From UHGV virus genome UHGV-1366781: a DNA stretch of 39,267 nucleotides; one strand, given 5' to 3'. The position numbers and the translations under genes were made by a program. Under the pieces are notes generated by a model. That model saw only the letters and a program-made list of their open reading frames with translations. It was not told the DNA's origin and made no database searches. The DNA is from a virus. Positions 149-37,225 of this stretch are shown here, piece after piece (the first letter of the stretch is position 1; each line of letters begins with the position of its first letter).

Positions 149-604
149 TCACCCTCGGTCAGATGTAACCAGTTCGTTCTTCTCCCACCAGCGCTTCAAG
201 TCGAAGGACGGGCAGGCTTTGGGTGCAACGTCATGGTGAGCACGAAGGACTGAACCCTCATACTTCGCCAGCAGCGTGACCAGCAGACTACGCAGCGCTT
301 GCATTTGCGCAGGTGTAAAGTTGGCGTCGAACTTGCCTTTATCATCAATCCCACCCACGAGGCATACGCCTACGGAGTTGTGGTTGTAACCTTTCACGTG
401 GGAACCTACAGCCAGTTCATCGCGGCCTGCTTCCACAGTGCCATCACGCTTGATGATGAAGTGATATCCTACGTCTAACCAGCCCTGCTCTTTGTGCCAC
501 TGACGAATCTCACGAACGCCAATGTTCTGGCTTGGCTTGGTTGCTGAGCAATGCACAAAGATTGCCTCCGTGGTTGCTCGTGGTTTGAATTGAACTTTAG
601 CCAT
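149..604 (-). CDS. 3.5: gp3.5 lysozyme / N-acetylmuramoyl-L-alanine amidase (also inhibits RNAP)
   Basis: 151 aa, near-identical over its full length to T7 lysozyme as I recall it (MARVQFK...KACPSFDLKRWWEKNELVTSDRG). Confidence 0.95.
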   Translation of the reverse strand: MAKVQFKPRATTEAIFVHCSATKPSQNIGVREIRQWHKEQGWLDVGYHFIIKRDGTVEAGRDELAVGSHVKGYNHNSVGVCLVGGIDDKGKFDANFTPAQMQALRSLLVTLLAKYEGSVLRAHHDVAPKACPSFDLKRWWEKNELVTSDRG

Positions 605-1058
605 TTTTCTTTACTCCTTTCTTAGTCTTAAATTTATCGAACGGAACCTCCTTCTTGGGTTCTTTGAGCCACGCCACTGGTATCAGCTTGTCAGCAAACA
701 GAATGCCATGCTTCTCGCACCACTCACCGTAGCTTGTTGGGCTACCCTTGTAGAGCTTTGAGCGGCTGCTTGAGAAGACCAAGCGGATATCCAGTTCAGG
801 GTGTTGCTCACGAATCAAAAGGTGTTTCTTGCGGTCATCGGAATCCCACAACCCTTTGGTCTCAATAAAGATGCCATTAGGTAGCAGGAAATCTGGAGTG
901 TATAAGTGGTCACTCGCAGGGATGACGTAAGGGATACGCCAAAGTTCATAGTCGAACTTAATTCCCTTACTCTCAAGCTGCTTTGAGACTTTATCCTCTA
1001 GGCCGGAACGGAATGCTCCGACCTTGCGTACACCTCGCGCAGCGTATGCGCCAGCCAT
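597..1058 (-). CDS. 3: gp3 endonuclease I (Holliday-junction resolvase)
   Basis: 153 aa; N-terminus and core match T7 gp3 (MAG..RKVGAFRSGLEDKVSKQLESKGIKF...). Start overlaps the 2.5 stop as TAATG; its own stop overlaps the 3.5 start. Confidence 0.95.
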   Translation of the reverse strand: MAGAYAARGVRKVGAFRSGLEDKVSKQLESKGIKFDYELWRIPYVIPASDHLYTPDFLLPNGIFIETKGLWDSDDRKKHLLIREQHPELDIRLVFSSSRSKLYKGSPTSYGEWCEKHGILFADKLIPVAWLKEPKKEVPFDKFKTKKGVKKNG

Positions 1059-1756
1059 TAGAAGTCCTCGTCATCATCCGGGGTTTCTTCGTGCTCGTCT
1101 TCCTGCCACTCCTGCTCATCGCGGGACTGACGGGATTCACTCGCAGTGTAACCACCATCTTCGACTTCATCGGCCCACTCATCGTCACCACCACCACCGA
1201 AGGTAGCCAGTTCGACCAGCATCACGGACTCCAGTTGCAGCTTGACGCTTGCGCCCACAGCGGTGTTCCACTTGTAAGGCACCAGAGAGTATTTCACTTT
1301 CAGCTTAGAGCCGCCGCCGATAATCGGAACGTCCTGAATCTTCTTGCCCTTGCTATCTACCACGACCAGATTAATGTGTTTGGTCTCTTTGGTCTTCTTG
1401 TCTTGGAAAGACGCATAGCATTTGAACTTGAAGGTAGTCGTACCGTCACCGTTATCGAAGAACGGCATGTCGCCCTCGTAAGGTTTCAGCGGTTTCTTAC
1501 CACGCTGTGCCTGAGGCGGGTTAGCTTCGAACTCTTCCACGGCAGCAGCATAAGCCTCTTCGTGAGTCTTCACGATTTCATCGACCATCGCCTGACAGCG
1601 CGGGTCTTTATTGGAAAGAGTCAGGTCTACCTTATAGATACCACGAGGGTTGCCGAAGCCACGCTCTTCGTTGCCATAATCCGGCTTACTCAGGTAAGCA
1701 TAAGGCTCAGCAGTGCCAAGACCAGAGGTGTAGATTTTCTTCTTGAAACCAGCCAT
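1058..1756 (-). CDS. 2.5: gp2.5 ssDNA-binding protein
   Basis: 232 aa; matches T7 gp2.5 core (TAEPYAY..KPDYGNEERGFGNPRG..KFKCYASFQDKKTKETKHINLVVVDSKGKK), with the acidic C-terminal tail ending ..DDDEDF. Confidence 0.95.
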   Translation of the reverse strand: MAGFKKKIYTSGLGTAEPYAYLSKPDYGNEERGFGNPRGIYKVDLTLSNKDPRCQAMVDEIVKTHEEAYAAAVEEFEANPPQAQRGKKPLKPYEGDMPFFDNGDGTTTFKFKCYASFQDKKTKETKHINLVVVDSKGKKIQDVPIIGGGSKLKVKYSLVPYKWNTAVGASVKLQLESVMLVELATFGGGGDDEWADEVEDGGYTASESRQSRDEQEWQEDEHEETPDDDEDF

Positions 1757-1786
1757 GATGTTTCTCCTTTGTTGTTAGTGATTGGG

Positions 1787-1811
1787 TTGTTCCCTTTAGT
1801 GAGGGTAATTA
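1787..1811 (-). promoter_or_regulatory. T3-type promoter upstream of 2.5 (phi2.5), with a 1-nt deletion in the -12..-17 AT-rich part and GGGAAC at +1..+6
   Basis: CCTAATTACCCTCACTAAAGGGAAC read on the minus strand. Confidence 0.55.
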
Positions 1812-2045
1812 GGCTTTCACTTCTGGACGGATGCGGCTCACAATGAAGCCAGCGTCCTCGTAATGTTCAGCCTGTAGTGTTGCCTCTTCGAGAGACCGGG
1901 CGAATACCGGAACCTCAAAGGACTCGGTGTTTCCTTCTATCGTCAGAAGGTATTTCTGTTCTGAGTACATGCAGCGATTTGCGCATGAGTGGTTCTCCAT
2001 CCCTACGTCCTTCGCGTACTGGCACCCGTTGTTACACTGGCTCAT
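1809..2045 (-). CDS. 2: gp2, inhibitor of host RNA polymerase, with a Cys-rich N-terminal extension
   Basis: C-terminal 45 aa match T7 gp2 (..[15 protein letters not shown]..). ATG at 2043-2045 overlaps the 1.8 stop as ATGA. The true start could be internal. Confidence 0.7.
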
Positions 2046-2179
2046 TTATTGGCCTCCTTAAAGCGCCGCTCCCACAGCGCGTACAGTTGTTGATAGGCGT
2101 TGGCTGCGGCCTCGTCACCAGCCTCAATAGCTTGGTTCCACTTAGCGGCACACCAATCACAGCATTCACGAAGCGTCAT
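2042..2179 (-). CDS. 1.8: gp1.8-like small protein (45 aa)
   Basis: The ORF track gives 2042..2275, but its first 110 nt overlap 1.7 out of frame. The internal ATG at 2177-2179 ([15 protein letters not shown]..) sits 9 nt after the 1.7 stop. Position and size match T7 1.8. Confidence 0.5.
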
Positions 2180-2636
2180 AACACAGCCCCCGGTGTTTGT
2201 CAAAGAGTTCCTGATAGAATGCAGCTTTATTGAGGTCTTTCTCCATAGTTGCCAGTTCGGATTTCTTGCCAGCACGCAGGCGATACTTAAGGATGTTCCC
2301 TAAGCAGTACCCACGGAACGCCTCGACTGTCATTGACCGGGCGATAACCTCAATGGCTTCCACGTTGTCGAACAGCATGTAGTGGTTCGGGTGGGTCACG
2401 TCAGACTTGACTTCTGACTTCTGTGCTTCCACGTTCGGGCCGACTTTAGGTAGTGGGATTAGTACGGAAGGATGTACCTCAGCCTCACGAATACCGAAAC
2501 GAACCTTGACTCGACCAGTGTGAGAGTAGCCCTGCACTGTTCCGGTCAGACCCTTGAACAAAGGGTTCGCTCCTGAATAACGAACGGCAGAGTTAACCGG
2601 GAAGCGGCTACGCATATCATAATATTCCTGTAACAT
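2166..2636 (-). CDS. 1.7: gp1.7 (nucleotide kinase family in T7); shorter N-terminus than T7
   Basis: 156 aa; the C-terminal ~70 aa match T7 gp1.7 (PNHYMLFDNVEAIEVIARSMTVEAFRGYCLGNILKYRLRAGKKSELA). Confidence 0.8.
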   Translation of the reverse strand: MLQEYYDMRSRFPVNSAVRYSGANPLFKGLTGTVQGYSHTGRVKVRFGIREAEVHPSVLIPLPKVGPNVEAQKSEVKSDVTHPNHYMLFDNVEAIEVIARSMTVEAFRGYCLGNILKYRLRAGKKSELATMEKDLNKAAFYQELFDKHRGLCYDAS

Positions 2637-2893
2637 TACAGCACCTCCTTAATCCACTTAGCGAACAGACGGATGCGAGGCCAGTAAGTGACCACGGCTT
2701 CCAGATGCGGGCGCTCTTTGTTCATCGCCTTAATGAACTCTCCACGAGTGATCAGTAGGTGAACACGCGGCGATAATGGGACGACCGAACCAATAAGAGG
2801 CAGCTTGGCGTTGCGCTCAGAGGCCACTGCTGTAGAGCGGTCTTCACGGCGAACCGAAAAGATACCGTTTGATGTGTTGAAGTGTAAACGCAT
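2636..2893 (-). CDS. 1.6: gp1.6 hypothetical early protein
   Basis: 85 aa ORF in the gene 1.6 position, similar in size to T7 gp1.6 (88 aa). Start ATG at 2891-2893; the 1.5 stop TAA forms part of its SD (TAAGGAGA). Confidence 0.65.
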   Translation of the reverse strand: MRLHFNTSNGIFSVRREDRSTAVASERNAKLPLIGSVVPLSPRVHLLITRGEFIKAMNKERPHLEAVVTYWPRIRLFAKWIKEVL

Positions 2894-2905
2894 TATGTTG
2901 TCTCC

Positions 2906-2983
2906 TTAACAATCAGGCCAAATGTTGTCGTCGGCAACCATTAATCCCAGCGTTGCGACGATAGCGAATAGGATAAGCCACAT
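2906..2983 (-). CDS. 1.5: gp1.5-like micro-ORF (25 aa, hydrophobic)
   Basis: Hand-read: MWLILFAIVATLGLMVADDNIWPDC. AGGAGA lies 7 nt upstream, directly downstream of the phi1.5 promoter. Position matches T7 gene 1.5 (29 aa). Confidence 0.45.
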   Translation of the reverse strand: MWLILFAIVATLGLMVADDNIWPDC

Positions 2984-2991
2984 GGTGTGTG

Positions 2992-3014
2992 TCTCCTGTT
3001 AGTGAGGGTTAATA
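2992..3014 (-). promoter_or_regulatory. T3-type promoter phi1.5 (TATTAACCCTCACTAACAGGAGA)
   Basis: Core CCCTCACTAA conserved; immediately downstream of the TE terminator and upstream of the 1.5 micro-ORF. Confidence 0.7.
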
Positions 3015-3020
3015 CCGCTG

Positions 3021-3052
3021 AACGAAGAAAGGCCCACCCGTGAAGGTGAGCC
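3021..3052 (-). terminator. TE, intrinsic terminator for host RNAP after ligase gene 1.3
   Basis: Minus strand CTGGCTCACCTTCACGGGTGGGCCTTTCTTCG: GC hairpin plus U-tract, matching T7 TE (CTGGCTCACCTTCGGGTGGGCCTTTCTGCG). Confidence 0.8.
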
Positions 3053-3062
3053 AGTGAGTTGG

Positions 3063-4109
3063 TTACATTTTCTCTTGAGGGTTGTCCTCAGTGCCTCGGA
3101 ACTTCTCGAAGCTAGGGTGACGCAGGGAGCCGTCCGGGGTCTCTTCCATATAGTTGACCTGACAGGCCCACCCGTTGTAGAAGTCTTCACCGTGGGCTTT
3201 AACGTTGGCTGTGAACTCGTCCATCAGTGCGCGAGAGATGTTGTTGGCGTCTACTAAACGACCAGTCTCAAGAAGCACACTAAAGCCTATCACTTTACCC
3301 TCGTTGGCTAACCCTTCGGTTCCCCAATTGACACCCTGAATGATACCGTCAGCTTCACACTCAGGCTTGAGCTTCCACCAGCCAGACTTCTTGCCTCGCT
3401 TATAGATGCCCTGCGGGTCTTTCACAATGAGACCCTCATGACCTTCGGCACGCTTCTCTTCGTACAATTCAGTCAGCGAATCCATATCGTAGACCTCGTA
3501 GGTCTCAGCGATAAGCCACTCGATTTCCGGGAAGTATTCAACCAGAAGAGAGCGCATGGCTTCCACATGATACGGCATCAGCAGGTTCTGTACATCGTAG
3601 TCCTCGCCAGACTCCGCAATGTGAATCGGCATGACCGCATACAGGCGCACGCTCAGGCGCTTAGTGTCCAACTCAAAGGCGGTGCGAACCCGTTTAGCTA
3701 CTCCCACCTTACGTGGCTTGAGCATGTCTGGTGTGACCATTACGTTATGGAACTCGGCGTTATCCTTCTTGAGCCACTTGGTACGCAGCAGGCCAGACCC
3801 GGTGTTGAAGTCTACACCTTTGACCATCAGTTCGCCATCCAGCATGAAGCCATCCGGGAAGATGCAGCGGTCATCGTTCAGTAGTTGTTGCCAGCGCTTA
3901 TCGAATCCGTTAAGGTGCTCAAGCGCCGGAATCAGCTTGCCTACACGTGAAAGCCATGCAGCCTCAGCCACGTTGTCAACCACGATGTTACCGCGCACAC
4001 CATCGTACTTAATGTCCGCAATCAGGTAGCCGGAGGTCTCCAGCGCTTTCTTAACGGCAGACTCTACGAATGACACAGCTTTGAATGGGTTGGTATTGAA
4101 GATGTTCAT
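3063..4109 (-). CDS. 1.3: gp1.3 ATP-dependent DNA ligase
   Basis: Matches T7 ligase (NPFKAVSFVESAIKKAL..GYLIA.IKYDGVRGN; the K in KYDG is the adenylation lysine). I chose the ATG at 4107-4109 (MNIFNTNPF..) with AGGAAC upstream, rather than the track start at 4124. Confidence 0.95.
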   Translation of the reverse strand: MNIFNTNPFKAVSFVESAVKKALETSGYLIADIKYDGVRGNIVVDNVAEAAWLSRVGKLIPALEHLNGFDKRWQQLLNDDRCIFPDGFMLDGELMVKGVDFNTGSGLLRTKWLKKDNAEFHNVMVTPDMLKPRKVGVAKRVRTAFELDTKRLSVRLYAVMPIHIAESGEDYDVQNLLMPYHVEAMRSLLVEYFPEIEWLIAETYEVYDMDSLTELYEEKRAEGHEGLIVKDPQGIYKRGKKSGWWKLKPECEADGIIQGVNWGTEGLANEGKVIGFSVLLETGRLVDANNISRALMDEFTANVKAHGEDFYNGWACQVNYMEETPDGSLRHPSFEKFRGTEDNPQEKM

Positions 4110-4139
4110 ACGGTTGTTCCTCATTGGTTGAAAGTTAAT

Positions 4140-4183
4140 AAGTTCGAATCACAAAGGCCACTCGTTAAAGTGACCTTGAGGAT
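4140..4183 (-). promoter_or_regulatory. RNase III processing site R1.3
   Basis: Shared motif aatcacaaaggccac..(loop)..gtgaccttgag; an imperfect hairpin between 1.2 and 1.3. Confidence 0.65.
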
Positions 4184-4206
4184 TCTCCTGTTAGTGAGGG
4201 TTATTA
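4184..4206 (-). promoter_or_regulatory. T3-type promoter phi1.3 (TAATAACCCTCACTAACAGGAGA)
   Basis: Sits between the RNase III site R1.3 and the ligase gene. Confidence 0.7.
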
Positions 4207-4482
4207 CTTCCAGTGTTTCAAATCACTGTGAACCTTACGGAGCCATGCAGTCTGCGCGTTGATTTGTACATCGCTGTCGCTATGCTCGAAGGTTCTGGAT
4301 GCCACCGGATGCCCGGAGCGTGTGAACACACGGAGAACCTCACCGGATGACCTGCACATCTTCGCTGGGTTTTCATAGCTGAACGACTCCACCTTCACGG
4401 TCACGTCATGGTCTTCCTGTAGACGCGCTACCGCATCTTTGTAATCGTTCAGGTTGCCGCTATAGATACGTCCCATCATCAT
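4204..4482 (-). CDS. 1.2: gp1.2 (inhibitor of host dGTPase in T7)
   Basis: Matches T7 gp1.2 (MGRLYSGNL...; ends ..DLKHWK). The track start is GTG at 4491. The first ATG at 4480-4482 overlaps the 1.1 stop as TAATG and has GGGAG upstream. Confidence 0.85.
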   Translation of the reverse strand: MMMGRIYSGNLNDYKDAVARLQEDHDVTVKVESFSYENPAKMCRSSGEVLRVFTRSGHPVASRTFEHSDSDVQINAQTAWLRKVHSDLKHWK

Positions 4483-4622
4483 TAGTTCCACTCCCGTTTC
4501 TGTGAGTTACCGCGCTGTTGCTTGTGGCGTTTCTTCATGCGGTCACGGCGCTCTTGCCACTGTTCGCCATGCTCGTTGACCACTGAATCGCGCTTGGTAA
4601 ATTTCTCAAAGTTGGTACGCAT
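4482..4622 (-). CDS. 1.1: gp1.1 small basic protein (46 aa)
   Basis: Hand-read MRTNFEKFTKRDSVVNEHGEQWQERRDRMKKRHKQQRGNSQKREWN; resembles T7 gp1.1 (MRNFEKMTKR...). GAGGT lies 8 nt upstream. Confidence 0.7.
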   Translation of the reverse strand: MRTNFEKFTKRDSVVNEHGEQWQERRDRMKKRHKQQRGNSQKREWN

Positions 4623-4654
4623 AGTATCTTACCTCATGTTGATGTGTATTGAAA

Positions 4655-4692
4655 GTTAATCACAAAGGCCACCGCTGGTGATGACCTTAAGT
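4655..4692 (-). promoter_or_regulatory. RNase III processing site R1.1
   Basis: aatcacaaaggccaccgctggtgatgaccttaag. Confidence 0.65.
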
Positions 4693-4696
4693 TTAA

Positions 4697-4720
4697 CTCT
4701 CCCGTTAGTGAGGGTTAACT
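4697..4720 (-). promoter_or_regulatory. T3-type promoter phi1.1 (AGTTAACCCTCACTAACGGGAGAG)
   Basis: Upstream of gene 1.1, after the RNase III site. Confidence 0.75.
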
Positions 4721-4987
4721 GTATGTCCGTTCGATACGACCACACGTTGAACCTTCCGGGTAGTAGAAGGATTTCGTTTCGTTGTCCTCAGTGGTCTGGA
4801 AGATGACCATCCCGGAGGACGTTGAGTAACATTCCAACTTCGTGACCACCTTACCGCACGGCCCTAAGCCTAACCTAAATTCAGTCTTGCGGAGGTCATC
4901 ACTACCTGGCATCCAAGCGTAGAACTTAATGGAAGTCAAGCGGTTTAACTTAAAGATGTTCTTAAAGAAAGTCTTAATGTTAATCAT
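4715..4987 (-). CDS. 1.05: gp1.05-like hypothetical protein
   Basis: 90 aa ORF between gene 1 and 1.1, immediately downstream of a T3-type promoter. T3 and phiYeO3-12 carry gene 1.05 here; T7 does not. Confidence 0.55.
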   Translation of the reverse strand: MINIKTFFKNIFKLNRLTSIKFYAWMPGSDDLRKTEFRLGLGPCGKVVTKLECYSTSSGMVIFQTTEDNETKSFYYPEGSTCGRIERTYS

Positions 4988-5037
4988 AAATTTAATCTCT
5001 TAGTACCTAAAGTGTCTTAAAGTGGGAGACCTTAAGT

Positions 5038-5062
5038 AGTCTCCCGTTAGTGAGGGTTAATG
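5038..5062 (-). promoter_or_regulatory. T3-type promoter downstream of gene 1 (phi1.05/1.1A equivalent); the +1 region folds into a GGGAGAC..GTCTCCC hairpin
   Basis: CATTAACCCTCACTAACGGGAGACTACTTAAGGTCTCCC read on the minus strand. Confidence 0.75.
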
Positions 5063-5073
5063 CTAAGTGCTTG

Positions 5074-7728
5074 TTATGCAAAGGCAAAGTCAGACTTGAG
5101 AATGTCTTGCAGGTTCAGGTTCCCTTTCTTCGGAAGAGGAGGCATCTTGTCCAGTTGGGTCTCGTGTAGCTGGTCTGCAAACTGGTCATAGAAGTCTGCC
5201 AGCACATCGTTGTTCTCATAGGTTATAACCATCGTTTCACGCACAGCCTTAAAGAGCTTACCAGCGTCTGCCGGGATAGTCCCAAAGCTGTCATGGATGA
5301 GCGCAAAGGACTCAATACCATACTTCTCGTGAGCATAAACTACTGTCATGCGGAGGTGGCTACCGTCTTGTGAGTGAACAAAGTTAGGCGCGATGCCAGA
5401 CTCCTGCTTGTGTGCGTCAATGCCTGAATCCTTGAGGGTATTAATCGTCGGTTGCAGACGGAATTGCCCTAAGAAAATCATATCGAGACGCTTCTGGAGT
5501 GGCTTGCGGTATTCCTGCCAGACCGGGAAGCCGTCCGGCGTAGTCCAGTGAACCGCGCAACGGTGGCGCAGAATCTCCTTGGTCTTCTTGTCCTTGACCT
5601 CAGCAGCCAGCAGCTTAGCGGCAGACTTGAGCCAGTTCATCGCCTCAACCGCTGCGACTACGGTCACGCTCACCGCGTCCCAAATCAGCTTAGCCATATA
5701 GCCAGCCGCTTGGTTAGGTTGGGTGAACATCAAGCCCTTACCGCTGTCAATCGCAGGCTGAATGGTGTCGTCCAGTACCTGTTGACGAAAGCCGAACTCC
5801 TTGGAACCGTAAGCCAGCGTCATGACCGAACGTTTAGTTACGCTACGGGTTACACCGTATGCCAGCCACTGTTGCGCCAGCGTTGAGGTTCCCAGCTTGA
5901 GCTTCTCAGAGATTTCCCCGGTGTCCTTGTCGGTCACGGTAATCATCTCGTTAGGTGTGCCGTTGATTGCATCCTGTTTGAGAATCTCGTTTACTTTCTG
6001 TGCAACGATTCCGTAAATGTCCTGCACGGTTTCGCTTGGCAGCAGGTTAACCGCACGACCGCCTACCTCATCGCGGAGCATCGCGGAGAAGTGCTGGATA
6101 CCAGAGCAAGACCCGTCGAACGCCAGCGGCAGAGAGCAATTGTAGCTCAGACCGTGGTGCGCAACGCCTGCATACTCGAAGCAGAACGCTAGGAAACAGA
6201 AAGGTGAATCCTGCTCGGCCCACCAAGTGTTATTGATTGGGTCTTTAGCGCAAGCCAGAATGTCGTCTACGTGCTTCTCAATGAACGCGATGCGCTCAGG
6301 GAAAGGCACCTTATCGACACCCGCACAGTTCGCACCGTGGATTTTCAGCCAGTAGAAACCTTCCTCACCGATTGGCTTTCCTTTAGCGAGGGTCAGCAGA
6401 CCTTTCGTCATGTCGTTGCCCTGCGGGTTGAACATCGGCACAGCGTACACACGCCCGCGCCAGTCCATGTTGTAAGGGAACCAGATTGCTTTCTTGTTTG
6501 CAAACTTGTTGGCCTGCTCCAGCATGAACTCTAAGCTGATACGGCGAGACACTCGTGCCTTGTCCAAGCGGTAGACACCAGCAGCGGCTTTCTTCCACTC
6601 CTTGAGTGCTGCCTCGTTGGTGTCAATGTCGTCCGGCTTAGGTGGTAACTCTTGGCGCTCCAGCGATGGAATGTCCGCTACCGGGCAGTTCTTCCAGTTC
6701 ACAATCTCGTTGACAACCGCGAGGACTTTCTTGTTGATTTTCCATGCGGTGTTCTGTGCGATGTTGACCGCCTTGTATACTTCTGGCATGTAAACATCCT
6801 CATAGCGCATCAGTCCCTTCTTAGAGTGAGTGCGAATGAGCGCCAAAGGTCTGCGACCGTTCGCCCAATAGCCGCCACCTGTGATTGATACCCAAGGTTT
6901 CGGCGGTACTACACACGGTTGGAACATCGGAGAGATGCCAGCCAGTGCTCCTGCACGCTTCGCTAACACATCGACGTACTCTTGGGCCAGTTGCAGTGCC
7001 TCATGGTCAGAGCCTGCGTTGCCTGCATTGTGGCGCTGTAATTCCACCAGACCTGTGGATTCAATCAGCATTTCAATCAGGCGAATCCCTACGTGCATCG
7101 TGGTTTCTTTATCCCAGCTAGACCACGCCTCACCTCCCAGCAGCCCGCGACCAATCATATCGGCCTCGACCACCTGCATAAAGGCTTTCTTGTAGACTTG
7201 CCCGTGGCGCTTGTTAAGCTGTTCCTCAACGTGCTTCTTGAAGTGCTTCGCTTCGAGGTCACGGATGCGACCGAAACGTGCCTCATCCTCAATGGCCTTC
7301 CCCAGCATACCAGCAGCGGCCTGAATGGTTGTCATGTTCGTGCTGGTCAGTGACGCAAGGATGACCTTGAGTGTGATAAACGCGGAGGCTTCCGGCTTGA
7401 GTAACTGGAGCGGTGCATAGGCTACTGGCTTGCGGCCTTTCTTCGAGGCGTACTCTTCGAGCCACTCAACGATGCGTGCGGTTAACTTAGGGAGAAGTGT
7501 AGCGAGTAATGGCTTAGCGGCTGCGTTGTCTGCAATCTCACCAGCTTTCGCTTGACGCTCCAGCATCTTGAGGAAGCGGCGCTCACCTAACTCATAAGAC
7601 TCGTGCTCTAAAGCCAGTTGTTCACGAGCCAGTGCGCTGCCGTAGTGGTCTGCCAGCGTGTTGAACGGGATAGCAGCCAGTTCGATTTCAGAGAAGTCAT
7701 TCTTTTCGATAGTTTCGATGATGTTCAT
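5074..7728 (-). CDS. 1: gp1 DNA-directed RNA polymerase (single-subunit, T3-type)
   Basis: 884 aa from the ATG at 7726-7728 (MNIIETIEKNDFSEIELAAIPFNTLADHYG..), GAGG upstream. Almost residue-for-residue T3 RNAP as I recall it. The track start is a GTG 4 codons upstream. Confidence 0.98.
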   Translation of the reverse strand: MNIIETIEKNDFSEIELAAIPFNTLADHYGSALAREQLALEHESYELGERRFLKMLERQAKAGEIADNAAAKPLLATLLPKLTARIVEWLEEYASKKGRKPVAYAPLQLLKPEASAFITLKVILASLTSTNMTTIQAAAGMLGKAIEDEARFGRIRDLEAKHFKKHVEEQLNKRHGQVYKKAFMQVVEADMIGRGLLGGEAWSSWDKETTMHVGIRLIEMLIESTGLVELQRHNAGNAGSDHEALQLAQEYVDVLAKRAGALAGISPMFQPCVVPPKPWVSITGGGYWANGRRPLALIRTHSKKGLMRYEDVYMPEVYKAVNIAQNTAWKINKKVLAVVNEIVNWKNCPVADIPSLERQELPPKPDDIDTNEAALKEWKKAAAGVYRLDKARVSRRISLEFMLEQANKFANKKAIWFPYNMDWRGRVYAVPMFNPQGNDMTKGLLTLAKGKPIGEEGFYWLKIHGANCAGVDKVPFPERIAFIEKHVDDILACAKDPINNTWWAEQDSPFCFLAFCFEYAGVAHHGLSYNCSLPLAFDGSCSGIQHFSAMLRDEVGGRAVNLLPSETVQDIYGIVAQKVNEILKQDAINGTPNEMITVTDKDTGEISEKLKLGTSTLAQQWLAYGVTRSVTKRSVMTLAYGSKEFGFRQQVLDDTIQPAIDSGKGLMFTQPNQAAGYMAKLIWDAVSVTVVAAVEAMNWLKSAAKLLAAEVKDKKTKEILRHRCAVHWTTPDGFPVWQEYRKPLQKRLDMIFLGQFRLQPTINTLKDSGIDAHKQESGIAPNFVHSQDGSHLRMTVVYAHEKYGIESFALIHDSFGTIPADAGKLFKAVRETMVITYENNDVLADFYDQFADQLHETQLDKMPPLPKKGNLNLQDILKSDFAFA

Positions 7729-7798
7729 TGCTTGCCTCACTATGGATAAATCGTTCCTATTCAGGCCACCTCATGATGACCTGTAAGAAAAGACTCTA

Positions 7799-8908
7799 TC
7801 AGCCTTGCAGTCTCTTGTCAAGGTATGCGTCTATGTGTAACGGCTTGCCCCATACGATAGCCTTGTGGTCTATCTGTGCCATCTGTGCGGCTGCTAACAG
7901 TTCGAGCCGTGCGAAGTCAACATTCATGTGCTGCACCCAAGCGTTGCGCCAGTGCTTATCCCCCCACAACATACGTGCCCTAGGCTCGGCCCTGCGTTGC
8001 TCGTTGGCATCCATGCTCATCTTAGCGAGTACCTTAGCGTTGCGCTTCTCACGCTTAGAGGCCTTTCTGCGCCATTTGGCACGGGCCTTTCGTGCTACCT
8101 GAAAGTCTCCTTTAGGGTCACGGCGTGCCTTGCGTGCCTTACAGCGGTCAATCGCTTCCTGCGCTCTCAGCGCCTCAATCTCAGCGATGAGTTCATCCGG
8201 GTCACAGTGGAACTCACCCGGCTTTAACTTGTCGTCTGCGCTGAATGATACCGGGTCTGTGATAATCAGGCGTCCCATCTGGTCTTTCATCATGTTACCG
8301 CTGTGACAATCGAACGATGCGATGCCTAAGAAGAACTTGCGGATATCCTTGCAGGTCTCAATGAACCCGTCACTTATTGGGTACTCTTCGGCAGCATCAA
8401 AGCAATCCTCCTCAATGATTTCCCGTGCGGCCTTGAAGTGGTGACGAATCTTGTCACTCTCACCATCGCACCAGTAGTTAAGCGGATTCAGATAATCAAG
8501 AACCACCGTGTAACAACCAGCATGTCGCTGAATGTCGTACACCGTAGGGATACCTTCCCGGCCTTGGTTCATACGGCAGAAGGCTGCATAGGCTGCGCCT
8601 GAGTCCTCTTTCTTAAAGCCTACCTTGATGACCTTGCCCGGTAACAATGCGTGCTCATATGCTGCGCTAAAGTGACCATTTCCTAACTTGATGAAACCAA
8701 CATCCCTCATGCGCTCCGCCAGCGTCTGCCAGTAGTCCATATGTTCGAGCGCCTTGTTTCCTGCGTCCTGCGTCAGTTGCCCATCTTGAGTCTCAGCGTT
8801 CACAATGGCAGCAGCAAGAGCCACCAGCATGGGCTGGCGCTCGCTCAGGCGCTCAATCGGTAGATTGCGGATAGCTTCGAGTGCGGCTTGTGCTTCGGTG
8901 AAAGTCAT
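7799..8908 (-). CDS. 0.7: gp0.7 serine/threonine protein kinase / host transcription shut-off
   Basis: 369 aa; matches T7 gp0.7 kinase core (GNGHFSAAY.H.LLP..VIKVGFKKEDSGAAY.AFCRM.QGR.GIP.VYD.QRHAGCYTVVLD; ITDPVSFS) with a basic C-terminal half. Confidence 0.9.
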   Translation of the reverse strand: MTFTEAQAALEAIRNLPIERLSERQPMLVALAAAIVNAETQDGQLTQDAGNKALEHMDYWQTLAERMRDVGFIKLGNGHFSAAYEHALLPGKVIKVGFKKEDSGAAYAAFCRMNQGREGIPTVYDIQRHAGCYTVVLDYLNPLNYWCDGESDKIRHHFKAAREIIEEDCFDAAEEYPISDGFIETCKDIRKFFLGIASFDCHSGNMMKDQMGRLIITDPVSFSADDKLKPGEFHCDPDELIAEIEALRAQEAIDRCKARKARRDPKGDFQVARKARAKWRRKASKREKRNAKVLAKMSMDANEQRRAEPRARMLWGDKHWRNAWVQHMNVDFARLELLAAAQMAQIDHKAIVWGKPLHIDAYLDKRLQG

Positions 8909-8966
8909 TTCAATGTGTCCTTAGGTAGTAGTTAATGCGCTGTAGAAGATACCGACCTTATCGGTC

Positions 8967-9467
8967 TTAAAGTTTGCCCGTTAAATAGTGGAAGGCATTG
9001 CGTAACAATTCAGGCGAATCCTTTAATAGTCCTATTCCCCTGTTGCAGTTTGAACATAAAAGACCCCGAACGTCCCCGGTGATGTGGGAGTGGTCAACAC
9101 AGAGCTGCCTACCGGCTATGCTCTCAGGGTGCTTGCATATGGCGCACACTCCGTGCTGCTCCTCATACATTTTGCGGTAGGTCAGTTCATCAATCCCATA
9201 GTTTACTTTCAGGTGGTTGTTGCGTCTCCGCTTTGCATCCTTAAGCGCCTTATCGGTAGGCACAGAGGCGGCTTTCGCCTTTAAGCGTCTTTCGCGCTGC
9301 TGTTTGGCTTTACACGCCTTGCATGTGCCGATGTGCCCATCAAGTGACGCCGCATTCTTTGTGTAGAACTCAAGTGGCTTTATCTCACCACATGCTACGC
9401 AGGTCTTAATGGGTTGCAATGTAGAATACTCCCACCTTGTTGGCCTTAAAGCGTCCGTTACGTTCAC
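8967..9467 (-). CDS. endonuclease VII-type HNH nuclease with an N-terminal CxxC..CxxC zinc ribbon; candidate free-standing homing endonuclease
   Basis: 166 aa. VCAICKHPESIAGRQLCVDHSHITGDVRGLLCSNCNRGIG aligns to T4 gp49 (CLICQREL..HLDHDHELNGPKAGKVRGLLCNLCN). Start is GTG (9465-9467) with no SD, overlapping the upstream ORF by 62 nt. No counterpart in the T7 layout. Confidence 0.7.
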   Translation of the reverse strand: MNVTDALRPTRWEYSTLQPIKTCVACGEIKPLEFYTKNAASLDGHIGTCKACKAKQQRERRLKAKAASVPTDKALKDAKRRRNNHLKVNYGIDELTYRKMYEEQHGVCAICKHPESIAGRQLCVDHSHITGDVRGLLCSNCNRGIGLLKDSPELLRNAFHYLTGKL

Positions 9468-9600
9468 GAACCGTAAACCGTGGGATGAATCCCCACTTAA
9501 AGTAACTCAGCGTTGCCTTGTGTATTGCCAGACCGCGCTTAAAGTCTCGCATAAAGTACATTGCGATGCACAGATAGACCAGTGCGATTAGTGCTGCCAT
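9406..9600 (-). CDS. hypothetical early protein (64 aa, hydrophobic N-terminus, basic C-terminus); position of 0.6B/0.65
   Basis: ORF track. ATG at 9598-9600 overlaps the end of the upstream 30-aa ORF (ATGGCAGCACTAA). Confidence 0.5.
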   Translation of the reverse strand: MAALIALVYLCIAMYFMRDFKRGLAIHKATLSYFKWGFIPRFTVRERNGRFKANKVGVFYIATH

Positions 9601-9696: not shown

Positions 9697-9745
9697 ATGT
9701 TAATCATAAAGGCCACTCGTATGGAGCGACCTTGAGTTTAACACT
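9697..9745 (-). promoter_or_regulatory. RNase III processing site R0.5-like, in the early region
   Basis: taatcataaaggccactcgtatggagcgaccttgagttta. Confidence 0.65.
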
Positions 9746-9789
9746 TGATAGACTTGAAGTCTGTTGCCCAGTGATTACAAATCGCGTTA

Positions 9790-9990
9790 TCAATCATTCC
9801 AGCCCGCACATGTTGCTTGGTGTATCACACAGGCTTGATAATCCTCTTGTGCTAAAATCGGGTTTACCCAATGTGTGACCTGTTTACCGTATCGCACAAC
9901 GTAGGTGCTTCCCATTGACCCGTGGTAATACTCACGCAGTGTTACGGTGCATTGGCCTTCTATTTTAGATGTTGCCAGTAGTTTACTCAT
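9790..9990 (-). CDS. hypothetical early protein (67 aa); position of T3 0.45
   Basis: The track ORF 9790..10062 begins inside the RNase III hairpin that follows 0.3. The ATG at 9988-9990 (MSKLLATSKIEG..) with AGGA upstream is the first start clear of the hairpin. Confidence 0.45.
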   Translation of the reverse strand: MSKLLATSKIEGQCTVTLREYYHGSMGSTYVVRYGKQVTHWVNPILAQEDYQACVIHQATCAGWND

Positions 9991-10014
9991 GGTGTTAGTC
10001 CTATAGCGTGCTAA

Positions 10015-10062: not shown

Positions 10063-10521
10063 TTACTGTACTTGCCAGCGGCGTCCGAACTCATCAATCG
10101 TAAAGCAGCCTTGCAGTGGTGCGCCTTTAGGCACCTCTTGGAAGCTACCCGGCAGACGTTCAGCCTTATACCCGTCGATACCTTTAGCGTACACCAATCC
10201 CGCTGTGTGAGTCTGTGATTTGTATACCAGTACGCAATCTTGCTCATACTCATTGCAAGCTAAGCGTGCAACATTGAGTGCCTGCGCCTTGTCCTTGCAG
10301 CGTACACGAACCGTTTTTTCCTCAGTCGGTGCGCTTGCGATTGCCTCACGATAGCACCCGGTCAAATCTGTAGACTCAAGTTCGCCGTAGATACCCGGTG
10401 CGGCACGTAATTCACTCACCATGTGGCGGTGGCGGCTCATGTTCACCTCATCATCAAGGTTAGAACGGAATGCTGACACCAGTACATAGAAGACGTTAGC
10501 AGGCTCTTTAGTGAAAATCAT
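10063..10521 (-). CDS. 0.3: gp0.3 S-adenosylmethionine hydrolase/lyase (SAMase, anti-restriction)
   Basis: 152 aa, MIFTKEPANVFYVLVSAFRSNL... matches my recollection of T3 SAMase. First gene downstream of A1-A3 and the R0.3 site; GAGGT upstream. Confidence 0.85.
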   Translation of the reverse strand: MIFTKEPANVFYVLVSAFRSNLDDEVNMSRHRHMVSELRAAPGIYGELESTDLTGCYREAIASAPTEEKTVRVRCKDKAQALNVARLACNEYEQDCVLVYKSQTHTAGLVYAKGIDGYKAERLPGSFQEVPKGAPLQGCFTIDEFGRRWQVQ

Positions 10522-10549: not shown

Positions 10550-10608
10550 AAGTGAATATCATAAAGGCCACGCTTTCAGTGCGACCTTGAGTTATTCGCT
10601 TATACATC
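10550..10608 (-). promoter_or_regulatory. RNase III processing site R0.3, upstream of gene 0.3
   Basis: aatatcataaaggccacgctttcagtgcgaccttgagttattcgc. Confidence 0.7.
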
Positions 10609-10799
10609 GGTACACTCAAGAGCTATTATCCAGATTGTTAAAGAACTTTAGGCTACAGTTTCGTCGAGCCGAGGCTATTTCAGTGTTAGCCGTCACTTGC
10701 GTTATAAGTGCGACAAGCTCTTTATTATCGTGGTCGCTTGTGCTTTCGCCATCTATCCACTATGTCGCGTTTTTACACCTACGACACTCGGTGTCTTTC

Positions 10800-36861: not shown

Positions 36862-36883
36862 AATGCCCTCCTTTGGTTTCGTG

Positions 36884-36928
36884 CTAAATGATAATCATAA
36901 AGGCCACCCTTGGGCGACCTTGAGTTTA
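36884..36928 (-). promoter_or_regulatory. RNase III processing site R4.7, between 4.5 and 5
   Basis: gataatcataaaggccacccttgggcgaccttgagtttatcac. Confidence 0.7.
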
Positions 36929-37213
36929 TCACTTCTCGATAATCTCTTGCATACCAGCGCCGAACTCTACCAGACGCTCACGGTTATCGCCGACCACCTT
37001 GTCAGCAGCCATAGTCAGGGCACCCATAAGGCGACCGACCTGCTTGTCATCCAAGGTCATGCGTTGAGTGTGTGCTTTCGGAGACTTGTGGTCTTTCCAG
37101 CGGTAGACCATTGTTACCTTCTCGCCACGCACATTGATATGAACTCGGCGGGCGAACTGGTCAGCGGTGTCCGGCAGACGGATGGTGTTTGCGTGAGTGA
37201 TTGACTTGCTCAT
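36929..37213 (-). CDS. 4.5: gp4.5 hypothetical protein
   Basis: 94 aa ORF in the 4.5 position (T7 gp4.5 is 89 aa). Confidence 0.75.
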   Translation of the reverse strand: MSKSITHANTIRLPDTADQFARRVHINVRGEKVTMVYRWKDHKSPKAHTQRMTLDDKQVGRLMGALTMAADKVVGDNRERLVEFGAGMQEIIEK

Positions 37214-37225
37214 GGATTGTGCTCC

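Follow-up and report, generated by a model that had tools for sequence, protein, structure and literature searches.

An F-CphI-like endonuclease gene between genes 0.6 and 0.7 of a T3-like phage

The DNA analysed here (the window, 39,267 nucleotides; virus genome UHGV-1366781) is that of a T3-like (Teetrevirus) phage, in which a nuclease gene lies between gene 0.6 and the protein kinase gene 0.7 (Table 1). The gene is real, intact and ordinary. It probably encodes a free-standing homing endonuclease of the F-CphI or 'DHHRN' family, which starts at a UUG codon and was captured in the 0.6–0.7 slot at the sequence CTTTAAG(G). In the mechanism we propose, the gene would be transcribed within the early operon served by the host RNA polymerase and translated from the UUG with a Shine-Dalgarno sequence in the 3′ end of gene 0.6, an initiation region that would also serve gene 0.65 of related phages. 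Early in a mixed infection the nuclease would cut nuclease-less relatives at or near the 0.6–0.7 locus, and repair off the nuclease-bearing genome would copy the gene in. Site-specific cleavage, its target and homing drive are features that we infer.

Table 1 Features of the nuclease locus in the window (all on the minus strand)
Feature	Coordinates	Strand	Basis or remarks
Gene 0.7, protein kinase, downstream neighbour	7799..8908	-	Shine-Dalgarno TAAGGA at 8923-8918; kinase annotation in every relative
Decayed duplicate of the gene 0.6 3′ end (CTTTAAGACCGATAAGGTCGGTATCTTCTACAGCGCA), from the last nuclease codons on; insertion scar	8936..8972	-	Colinear alignment
Endo VII-type (F-CphI-like) endonuclease CDS, 150 aa	8967..9419	-	TTG 9419-9417 to TAA 8969-8967
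Endo VII catalytic domain (beta-beta-alpha-metal), CAIC ... VDHSH ... R ... CSNCN	8979..9215	-	Pfam, conserved residues, PDB/Foldseek
N-terminal Cys4 zinc ribbon and basic helix, about residues 4-50 of 150	9270..9410	-	Conserved Cys, AF2, Foldseek
Gene 0.6, 64 aa, hydrophobic N-terminus (homologue of T3 gene 0.6 and phiYeO3-12 0.6A)	9406..9600	-	phrog_2385, E 4.8e-29
Upstream copy of imperfect direct repeat (CTTTAAGGCCAACAAGGTGGGAGTATTCTACA), within gene 0.6	9420..9451	-	Local alignment
Open-frame extension upstream to GTG	9420..9467	-	TAG in Keithsmous, mtp8 and Kp31; no Shine-Dalgarno at GTG
Shine-Dalgarno-like sequence AAGGTGGGAG in the gene 0.6 3′ end, 9-11 nt upstream of TTG	9429..9438	-	Anti-Shine-Dalgarno duplex

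The Pfam family PF02945 (Endonuclease_7) matches residues 85 to 163 of the longest open reading frame, of 166 residues (8967-9467), with an E value of 1.1e-23 and 83 bits against a cut-off of 23.6 bits. The canonical HNH family PF01844 gave no match at E ≤ 0.1 in the Pfam search, and the domain is of the Endo VII type. A preliminary description of the sequence had named an HNH gene of the endonuclease VII type carrying a second CxxC..CxxC zinc ribbon; the Endo VII assignment and the ribbon stand, the HNH profile does not. The Endo VII motif is without the central Asn of HNH (Fang et al., PMC6083498). In the window the motif reads CAIC...LCVDHSH..GDVRGLLCSNCN, and the pattern of the DHHRN family, CX2-4C ... 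D-H-(D)-H ... R ... CX2C-N, is found as CAIC ... VDHSH ... VRG ... CSNCN. In 60 homologues the D, H, H, R and N of the motif and its four Cys are invariant or nearly so, with C92, C95, D109, H110, H112, R118, C122, C125 and N126 (numbering of the 150-residue product) invariant; C7, C10, C33 and C36 of the N-terminal CxxC...CxxC are at least 90% conserved. The AF2 model has a pLDDT of 92.9, and in it the N-terminal module consists of four short strands and then a helix (pLDDT >90). The protein begins with a Cys4 zinc ribbon, continues through a basic linker helix and ends in a beta-beta-alpha-metal nuclease that is stabilised by Zn. The ribbon is presumed to be the module for DNA binding and recognition. 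No paralogue of the nuclease turned up when the window was searched by tblastn.

The closest characterised relative is F-CphI of cyanophage S-PM2, an experimentally characterised homing endonuclease of the DHHRN/Endo VII-motif family (Fang et al. 2018, PMC6083498). BLASTP aligns the two at 41% identity over 143 residues (E 1e-30), covering residues 5-146. F-CphI is a full-length homologue of similar size (142 vs 150 residues), with the same order of an N-terminal CxxC...CxxC module and a C-terminal Endo VII motif, and it too is encoded by a free-standing gene adjoining a conserved gene. All of the residues shown to be essential in F-CphI and T4 Endo VII (PMC6083498) are conserved in the window nuclease. 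The two differ in setting, a T4-like cyanomyovirus as against a T3-like podovirus, and in locus; the window nuclease has no equivalent of the F-CphI target (intron-less psbA) or of the way in which F-CphI works together with an intron. Podovirus members of the 'endonuclease clade' of Fang et al. combine a C-terminal motif with a phage-encoded endonuclease I (PMC6083498). Both traits are found here: the motif occupies residues 69-147 of 150, and the phage encodes the gp3 endonuclease I (597-1058, minus strand; PF05367 Phage_endo_I, E 8e-84).

Occurrence, selection and mobility

The gene is sporadic. It is carried by 6 of about 150 Teetrevirus records and by a handful of Przondovirus, Teseptimavirus and Yersinia phages; orthologues at least 60% identical in amino acid sequence come from only some 26 records in four lineages. 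A scan of IMG/VR with a single protein query gave only three loci, two of which are copies of HZ2R8 and HZP2. The genomes closest to the window, mtp14, mtp1 and 2050H2 (97–98% identical), are without it, and T7, T3 and phiYeO3-12 have no such gene between 0.6 and 0.7, as the preliminary description had supposed for the T7 early region. Such patchiness in closely related phages, at one fixed site flanked by conserved genes, is that of the DHHRN family. Because the polymorphism occurs among genomes at least 97% identical and is accompanied by an insertion scar (below), the evidence supports what had first been suggested, a gene that is optional, moves horizontally and sits between conserved neighbours.

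With a dN/dS of 0.02–0.11 and a reading frame intact in all seven Teetrevirus copies, the nuclease is, on sequence grounds, under strong purifying selection and its function appears to be retained. Frameshifted or truncated copies occur in KpV92, CQ615, P0013 and P0014, as expected in the life cycle of a homing endonuclease. The dS between nuclease copies is 0.02–0.17, compared with 0.13–0.51 for the adjacent 5′ half of gene 0.7. At least three different 0.7 haplotypes adjoin the nuclease, each also found in nuclease-less phages, and the 5′ third of gene 0.7 falls into three deep haplotypes common to nuclease-plus and nuclease-minus phages. The nuclease has probably been recombined onto several 0.7 backgrounds after its arrival. 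A patch of about 400 nucleotides in the 5′ end of 0.7, seen in the profile of the window against 10164-302, was considered as a co-conversion tract and rejected; it is an old haplotype, also present in the nuclease-less phiYeO3-12 and not in other nuclease-plus phages. The early region of these phages recombines heavily everywhere, therefore mosaicism alone is no proof of endonuclease-driven movement. Among flanking polymorphisms none is associated with the nuclease but two synonymous sites in the overlap codons, which are perfectly associated; the flanks thus show neither a clear tract of co-conversion nor a polymorphism recognisable as one of immunity. No candidate target could be identified from the flanking polymorphisms.

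A function that benefits the phage would explain the strong purifying selection just as well, and the frequency of the gene, low in every genus (about 4%), falls short of what would be expected of an efficient driver. The nuclease might serve the phage as an early weapon against co-infecting competitor phages, plasmids or host DNA, or in counter-defence, and be selected in some niches. Its place in the early operon among genes of host takeover (the SAM lyase 0.3 and the kinase 0.7), a position kept across four lineages, the low dN/dS with an intact frame and the want of a clear co-conversion tract all favour such a role. We nevertheless think it unlikely. The gene is rare per genus and absent from the closest relatives in the same sewage and river collection (mtp8 has it, mtp14 and mtp1 do not), frameshifted copies exist, and among characterised homologues the nearest is a homing endonuclease. 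Moreover, exclusion of a competitor and homing are mechanistically one act, and the difference is partly one of emphasis. We thus prefer homing. The weight of this for basic biology is small, since near-identical copies are already annotated in GenBank and free-standing endonucleases with the Endo VII motif are already known in T7-like phages.

The 0.6–0.7 slot and the insertion scar

Upstream of the nuclease, gene 0.6 encodes a product near-identical to T3 gp0.6, and its final 14 nucleotides overlap the nuclease start. The nuclease frame opens at the UUG within the final codons of gene 0.6 and stops just short of the Shine-Dalgarno sequence of gene 0.7. Three alleles of this interval are found in Teetrevirus: empty (SH2, CT02), gene 0.65 (T3, phiYeO3-12, 10164-302) and nuclease. 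The same three states recur in Przondovirus, where the slot is empty in KP32, holds a 0.65-like gene in Pharr and holds the nuclease in phi1_146049. An overlap with gene 0.6 of 17 nucleotides, from an ATG, is found both for the 0.65-like frame of Pharr and for the annotated nuclease of KpV92; the same ATG is present in phi1_146049, whose record annotates a longer CDS. T3 gene 0.65 (termed '0.6B' in phiYeO3-12) shares with the nuclease its slot, a UUG start, a Shine-Dalgarno sequence in the 3′ end of gene 0.6 and the 14-nucleotide overlap, but it encodes an unrelated basic protein of 55 residues (phrog_10380). Gene 0.65 and the nuclease are alternative occupants of the slot and are not homologous.

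The segment that follows the nuclease records how the Teetrevirus allele was formed. Local alignment of the upstream repeat copy with it scores 30, where the maximum in shuffles was 24 (0/2000). Shigella phage CT02 has an 'empty' allele, and to its gene 0.6 3′ end plus intergenic sequence the segment aligns colinearly with a score of 69, where shuffles reached at most 30 (0/2000). All seven nuclease-bearing alleles have this scar, which marks insertion at the CTTTAAG(G) microhomology. In the gene 0.65 allele no remnant of gene 0.6 gave a signal above shuffles. The allele probably originated when a segment from another lineage, comprising the gene 0.6 3′ end and the nuclease, joined an 'empty' genome at CTTTAAG(G), a joining that would have left the duplicated remnant of gene 0.6. 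Kp31 keeps a Przondovirus-like 0.6 3′ end with ATG, suggesting import together with donor flank. A clean indel flanked by conserved sequence, which the preliminary description had proposed to look for, is found only in Przondovirus; in Teetrevirus the nuclease is instead an alternative to gene 0.65 and carries the duplicated gene 0.6 remnant.

The arrangement is old, as judged from the strong purifying selection on the gene and from Przondovirus homologues that sit in the same slot with the same start overlapping gene 0.6; the idea of a recent acquisition is thereby set aside. A nuclease ancestral to Studiervirinae at this slot and lost many times, its patchiness reflecting deletion and not mobility, would also account for the slot and gene 0.6-overlapping start that Teetrevirus and Przondovirus share despite saturated synonymous sites and a nuclease identity of only 65%. 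We consider this quite improbable: the gene 0.6 3′ remnant of the Teetrevirus allele is of the CT02/SH2 type and thus betrays insertion into an 'empty' allele, the seven Teetrevirus copies (dS ≤ 0.17) are much younger than the 0.7 haplotypes they adjoin, Kp31 appears to have received its copy with donor flank, and one metagenomic genome has the orthologue after the kinase and not before it. Capture and homing account better for these observations.

A wider reading is possible, though somewhat doubtful, in which the 0.6–0.7 interval would be a conserved cargo slot with its initiation region hard-wired in the 3′ end of gene 0.6, occupied in Teetrevirus and Przondovirus either by gene 0.65 or by the F-CphI-like nuclease, two cargos that exclude each other, or left empty, and the nuclease would spread by cutting 0.65 and empty alleles and being copied in. 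If so, the 0.6/0.7 junction would be a hotspot of endonuclease-driven recombination at which early-gene modules are shuffled across lineages and even genera, and the microhomology scar would be the record of one such cross-lineage capture. The three-allele slot, which has a clear scar and is common to two genera, makes a convenient natural system for testing homing and module exchange by the F-CphI family, in the setting of therapeutic Klebsiella and E. coli podophages.

Start codon and translation signals

The preliminary description had read the expression signals as odd, with a GTG start, no Shine-Dalgarno sequence and a 62-nucleotide out-of-frame overlap with the upstream gene. The two frames, of 166 and 64 residues, and their overlap do exist as open reading frames, but this start was rejected. 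In Keithsmous, mtp8 and Kp31, three of the seven alleles and themselves 96–99% identical alleles, a synonymous GTG to GTA change in gene 0.6 creates a TAG that separates the GTG from the gene body in the frame of the nuclease. The TTG at 9419-9417 is the only start common to all seven near-identical Teetrevirus copies, and it aligns with the UUG annotated in the T3 RefSeq record as the start of gene 0.65. The predicted duplex with the anti-Shine-Dalgarno sequence is -7.5 kcal/mol ahead of the TTG, among the strongest 6% or so of positions in the region, vs -2.4 kcal/mol ahead of the GTG; before gene 0.65 of T3 and phiYeO3-12 the element is kept as AAGGT(A/G)GGAG. Because the TTG is universal and well served by this element and the GTG is blocked by TAG in three alleles, the product is likely to be of 150 residues with a 14-nucleotide overlap, and the extension upstream probably lies outside the translated nuclease. 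The 62-nucleotide overlap is an artefact of ORF calling. Nor is weak expression, as had been proposed, supported for a gene that reuses the UUG and Shine-Dalgarno sequence of T3 gene 0.65.

Other records bear on the same point. Kp31 and one metagenome cluster have an ATG one codon upstream of the TTG, orthologues in other genera begin M-L-x-x-x-K-x-C, likewise one codon upstream, and orthologues in T7-like backgrounds have their own ATG and no overlap. Of five annotated GenBank records, three have the 150-residue CDS from TTG, Kp31 has 151 residues from ATG and ESh12 has 166 from GTG. The conserved UUG, as in T3 gene 0.65, should replace the longest-ORF GTG call. A promoter and terminator scan found no dedicated promoter or terminator for the nuclease gene; one terminator-like match inside it (9079-9066) is at chance level.

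The phiYeO3-12 record proposes a frameshift for '0.6B'. By analogy, a 0.6–nuclease fusion made by +1 ribosomal frameshifting, or a GTG-initiated protein of 166 residues, would tether the nuclease to the hydrophobic gp0.6; the nuclease frame is indeed +1 relative to gene 0.6, as in the annotated 0.6B, and in the window it is open through the 62 nucleotides of overlap. We judge this very improbable. The TAG, eight codons upstream of the TTG, is shared by phiYeO3-12 and T3 with the three alleles named above, the remaining eight codons contain no slippery motif recognisable by inspection, a Shine-Dalgarno sequence stands at the right distance from the UUG or AUG, and the alternative cargo is taken as a separate frame from the UUG in T3 RefSeq as well as in PHROGs (phrog_10380, full-length, E 2e-34). 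The non-overlapping ATG of T7-like-background orthologues also argues against it. The '0.6B' of phiYeO3-12 is more simply read as an independent UUG-initiated frame. A literature search on frameshifting in gene 0.6B/0.6A or on endonuclease VII in Teetrevirus found nothing relevant.

Relation to other Endo VII-motif nucleases

T4 Endo VII (gp49) has in common with the window nuclease the catalytic Zn-bound beta-beta-alpha-metal core with its D-H-x-H, R and N. Foldseek with the nuclease model recovers it at an rmsd of 2.5–3.5 Å over 85–91 columns out of 157 residues, and it is matched in sequence in the PDB (E 8e-4). T4 Endo VII is a structure-specific enzyme whose N-terminal motif is followed by a dimerisation domain, whereas the motif of the nuclease is C-terminal, behind the zinc ribbon. 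That the nuclease is a Holliday-junction resolvase like gp49, acting beside gp3 as the preliminary description had offered as an alternative, is hardly credible despite the shared catalytic motif and fold: only some 55 residues align (about 13-70 of T4 with 98-150 of the 166-residue frame), nothing corresponds to the C-terminal dimerisation domain, the domain order is that of F-CphI and the reverse of gp49, the sequence is closer to Hpy99I, the phage already has endonuclease I and most relatives do without the gene.

Hpy99I (PDB 3fc3) is the best match of solved structure, with E values of 8.7e-7 for sequence and 6.8e-6 for fold over 156 columns, an alignment that covers both Zn modules. Hpy99I has two tandem Cys4-Zn modules of which the second is the nuclease, as here (PMC2699513); it differs in an extra N-terminal beta-barrel and in its partner methylase on a bacterial chromosome, for which there is no equivalent here. 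If its target were mapped, the window nuclease could be a useful reagent, as a site-specific nuclease from a well-behaved T7-like phage. Also related are gp13.5 of phiYeO3-12 and EcoDS1 and similar 'endonuclease VII' frames of T7-like phages, which are about 39–42% identical over at least 95% of the length and whose Endo VII motif is recorded as C-terminal in the supplementary table of Fang et al. (PMC6083498). They have the same architecture and are likewise optional in Studiervirinae, but are found in the 13–14 interval or close to the right end of the genome.

Start codon and family of the nuclease

The window is a complete T3-like phage genome (Teetrevirus), circularly permuted and reverse-complemented. 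Its best genome-wide matches, at 97–98% identity, are Klebsiella phages mtp14, vB8388, mtp8, mtp1 and 31, Shigella phage ESh12 and Serratia phage 2050H2. The preliminary description described the ORFs and their 62-nt overlap correctly, but the odd expression signals it reported (a GTG start, no Shine–Dalgarno (SD) sequence) arose because the longest ORF was taken. Seven copies of the nuclease, 96–99% identical, were compared (window, ESh12, Keithsmous, vB8388, KpnP_VR4605, mtp8 and phage 31). Keithsmous, mtp8 and phage 31 share a synonymous change in a Val codon of gene 0.6, GTA for GTG, so that the nuclease frame meets a TAG after the GTG start and before the rest of the gene; with this stop in three of seven copies, the GTG start was rejected. 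The TTG at 9419–9417 is the sole start common to all seven. It is preceded by AAGGTGGGAG, whose predicted anti-SD duplex (−7.5 kcal/mol) is stronger than those of genes 0.3 and 0.7, compared with −2.4 for the GTG. One codon upstream of the TTG, an ATG is present in phage 31 and in a metagenome cluster of 22 members (P0001, MLQPIK...), and orthologues in other genera start M-L-x-x-x-K-x-C at the homologous position. Decisive for the start, the T3 RefSeq record places a "gene 0.65 protein, UUG start codon" at the same TTG, with a 14-nt overlap with gene 0.6. Most likely, then, the nuclease is translated from the gene 0.65 initiation region as a 150-aa protein.

That the gene is of endonuclease VII type was confirmed by PF02945 (Endonuclease_7), which matches residues 85–163 of the 166-aa product (E 1.1e-23); the Pfam search gave no canonical HNH match to this product. 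The Zn ligands and catalytic residues C92, C95, D109, H110, H112, R118, C122, C125 and N126 (150-aa numbering) do not vary across 60 aligned homologues, and the N-terminal CxxC...CxxC (C7, C10, C33, C36) is at least 90% conserved. The AlphaFold model from this alignment is confident (pLDDT 92.9) and comprises a four-stranded Zn ribbon, long basic helices and a beta-beta-alpha nuclease domain. Foldseek matched it to Hpy99I (E 6.8e-6, 156 columns) and T4 Endo VII (E ~6e-4, 85–91 columns, rmsd 2.5–3.5 Å); a PDB sequence search gave 8.7e-7 and 8e-4 for the same two proteins.

The sequence alignment with T4 Endo VII is limited to T4 residues 13–70, whereas F-CphI of S-PM2 is homologous over its full length (41% identity, E 1e-30; tblastn, BLASTP). 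F-CphI has been characterised experimentally as a free-standing homing endonuclease and is the founding member of the "DHHRN" family (PMC6083498). The same work sets a "resolvase clade" with an N-terminal motif, e.g. T4 gp49, apart from an "endonuclease clade" with a C-terminal motif, whose podovirus hosts also encode endonuclease I. The window protein has the C-terminal arrangement, and endonuclease I is present in the phage as gp3 (PF05367, E 8e-84). A resolvase role, raised earlier as an alternative, was thus not borne out. The gene is ordinary: it adds a member to an already known family of free-standing endonucleases that are probably homing enzymes; its cleavage specificity, target site and homing are inferred. 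What this analysis adds is the corrected start, the gene 0.65 slot with its three alleles shared by two genera, and the insertion scar at a microhomology.

Paralogues about 40% identical occur elsewhere in close relatives without the slot nuclease, between genes 13 and 14 or near the right genome end; tblastn found none at either place in the window. The gp13.5 paralogues of phiYeO3-12 and EcoDS1 are in a table of PMC6083498, in whose supplements, searched by T7-like phage names, the 0.6–0.7 slot subfamily was not found.

Features of the window and of related genomes (L numbers are extracted loci with their own coordinates)
Feature	Genome	Position or length	Strand	Remark
Three strong sigma-70 promoters	window	~11076, 10947, 10837	−	early genes
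SAM lyase 0.3	window	10063–10521	−	PF23780
0.45-like ORF, then 42-aa ORF	window	between 0.3 and 0.6	−	
Gene 0.6	window	9406–9600	−	
Nuclease ORF	window	8967–9467	−	
Imperfect direct repeat	window	9451–9420, 8972–8936		gene 0.6 3′ end
Hairpin	window	8951–8966		
Kinase 0.7	window	7799–8908	−	
RNA polymerase	window	5074–7740	−	
Teetrevirus empty allele	SH2, CT02	21-bp gap		
Teetrevirus gene 0.65 allele	T3, phiYeO3-12, 10164-302, 2050H2	171-bp gap		
Teetrevirus nuclease allele	6 records and window	497-bp gap		
"0.6B"	phiYeO3-12 (L002)	1724–2084		window slot 8909–9419
Gene 0.65	T3 (L020)	815–982		window slot 8909–9419
Przondovirus slot	KP32 (L018)	1432–1700		empty
Przondovirus slot	Pharr (L024)	874–1225		0.65-like ORF
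Przondovirus slot	phi1_146049 (L017)	2489–3129		nuclease
Frameshifted nuclease	KpV92 (L003)	2489–2948		
Frameshifted nuclease	CQ615 (L005)	2487–2955		
Nuclease locus	HZP2 (L006)	2190–2946		
Nuclease locus	ERZ27296293 (L023)	1916–3790		
Split 0.7	vB8388 (L008)	4100–5210		
Paralogue	phiYeO3-12	26682–27074		gene 13.5
Paralogue	2050H2	36454–36837		
Paralogue	mtp14	36836–37219		

Slot alleles and the insertion scar

Homology with nuclease-less relatives ends at the gene 0.6 stop codon. Three alleles occupy the slot between genes 0.6 and 0.7 in Teetrevirus, the gene 0.65 allele being found in about 68 records at no less than 90% identity. Przondovirus has the same three states, the nuclease being present in phi1_146049 and KpV92. 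There the indel is clean, and the first three bases of the kinase SD TAAGGA are the TAA stop codon of the nuclease. The 0.65-like ORF of Pharr starts at an ATG with a 17-nt overlap with gene 0.6, and both nucleases start at the homologous ATG; the overlap is visible in the annotated CDS of KpV92, while the phi1_146049 record gives a longer CDS. With the same alleles in both genera, and both Przondovirus cargos starting at one ATG that overlaps gene 0.6, either the slot is older than the Teetrevirus/Przondovirus split or cargos are swapped between them.

The gene 0.65 sequence carries two annotations, "0.6B, putative +1 frameshift" in phiYeO3-12 and an independent gene in T3. The 55-aa ORF is a full-length match to a PHROGs family (phrog_10380, E 2e-34), has an SD, and is preceded by an in-frame TAG eight codons upstream of the UUG; we therefore favour an independent ORF over a +1 frameshift product.

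In Teetrevirus the last codons of the nuclease and the next ~35 nt are colinear with CT02, an empty allele, across its gene 0.6 3′ end and intergenic region (nuclease side ...TAACGGGCAAACTTTAAGACCGATAAGGTCGGTATCTTCTACAGCGCA; CT02 TAACGG--ACGCTTTAAGGCCAATAAGGTTGGTATCTTCTACATCGCA....). This alignment reached a score of 69, the best of 2000 shuffles only 30; an imperfect direct repeat of the gene 0.6 3′ end thus lies on either side of the nuclease. In the simplest reading, a segment comprising a 0.6 3′ end and the nuclease and ending ...AAACTTTAAGG, as in Przondovirus, would have joined CTTTAAGG inside gene 0.6 of an empty-allele recipient, whose own gene 0.6 tail would have been left behind as a decaying remnant. 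On the left side the 0.6 tail of phage 31 remains Przondovirus-like (GGGATATTTTATG), which agrees with donor flank having been imported. Right after the nuclease stop, the remnant in the window contains a small hairpin, ACCGA-TAAGG-TCGGT. Its two substitutions relative to CT02 (CCAA...TTGG to CCGA...TCGG) compensate each other in the window; the position is mismatched in ESh12, VR4605 and mtp8.

Distribution, selection and mobility

Orthologues with at least 60% amino-acid identity were found in only ~26 of 50,697 phage records: six Teetrevirus, Yersinia phages WX1 and WX2, Teseptimavirus CQ615, HZ2R8, HZP2 and PDP351P2, and ~12 of several hundred Przondovirus. Of the six close-relative records, four already annotate their near-identical copies as "endonuclease VII". 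In the contexts inspected the nuclease lies immediately ahead of kinase 0.7 or, in genomes that lack the kinase, of RNA polymerase. In HZP2 it sits between gene 0.4 and RNA polymerase with no kinase annotated (HZ2R8 has a near-identical copy; tblastn matches H200–H203 cover both phages), and in the metagenomic genome ERZ27296293 between a shorter, 244-aa kinase and the polymerase; its position relative to 0.7 is therefore not invariant. Frameshifted or truncated copies, which are either decaying or sequencing errors, occur in KpV92, CQ615 and the homologues P0013 and P0014. The first two are frameshifted near the 3′ end, with the true C-terminus LLKDSPELLRNAFHYLTGKL readable downstream in another frame; an internal deletion affects the zinc ribbon of P0013, and P0014 is both frameshifted and truncated.

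The protein is under purifying selection: dN/dS is 0.02–0.11 among the seven Teetrevirus copies, and against other genera synonymous sites are saturated with pN 0.10–0.23. Nuclease dS (0.02–0.17) is several-fold lower than that of the adjacent 5′ half of 0.7 (0.13–0.51). The 5′ third of 0.7 (window 8640–8880) falls into three deep haplotypes, each common to nuclease-plus and nuclease-minus phages, which indicates a long-lived polymorphism with very fine-scale recombination in the kinase N-terminal region. The window and phiYeO3-12 are identical over ~8640–8830, though different elsewhere. Only two sites, both synonymous and in overlap codons, are perfectly associated with nuclease presence. 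It follows that the nuclease is a young, nearly uniform island, which recombination has placed on at least three older backgrounds through crossovers lying no more than ~100 bp from its 3′ end. This pattern fits the generalisation that nuclease genes are located at boundaries of genetic exchange (PMC10448857); it does not prove that the enzyme itself drives the exchange, since the early region is highly mosaic throughout. Sporadic presence, three alleles, the scar and several 0.7 backgrounds bear out, in outline, the mobile element first proposed.

In nuclease-bearing vB8388, a frameshift close to the 5′ end of the downstream 0.7 breaks this gene into two CDSs. Other cassette-like variable spots interrupt relatives otherwise 95–99% identical to the window: at 9700–10000 (0.45-like region) identity falls to 47–60% against 2050H2, Keithsmous and phage 31, and identity to mtp14 is ~75% at ~10600–10750 and ~67% at ~4000–4150.
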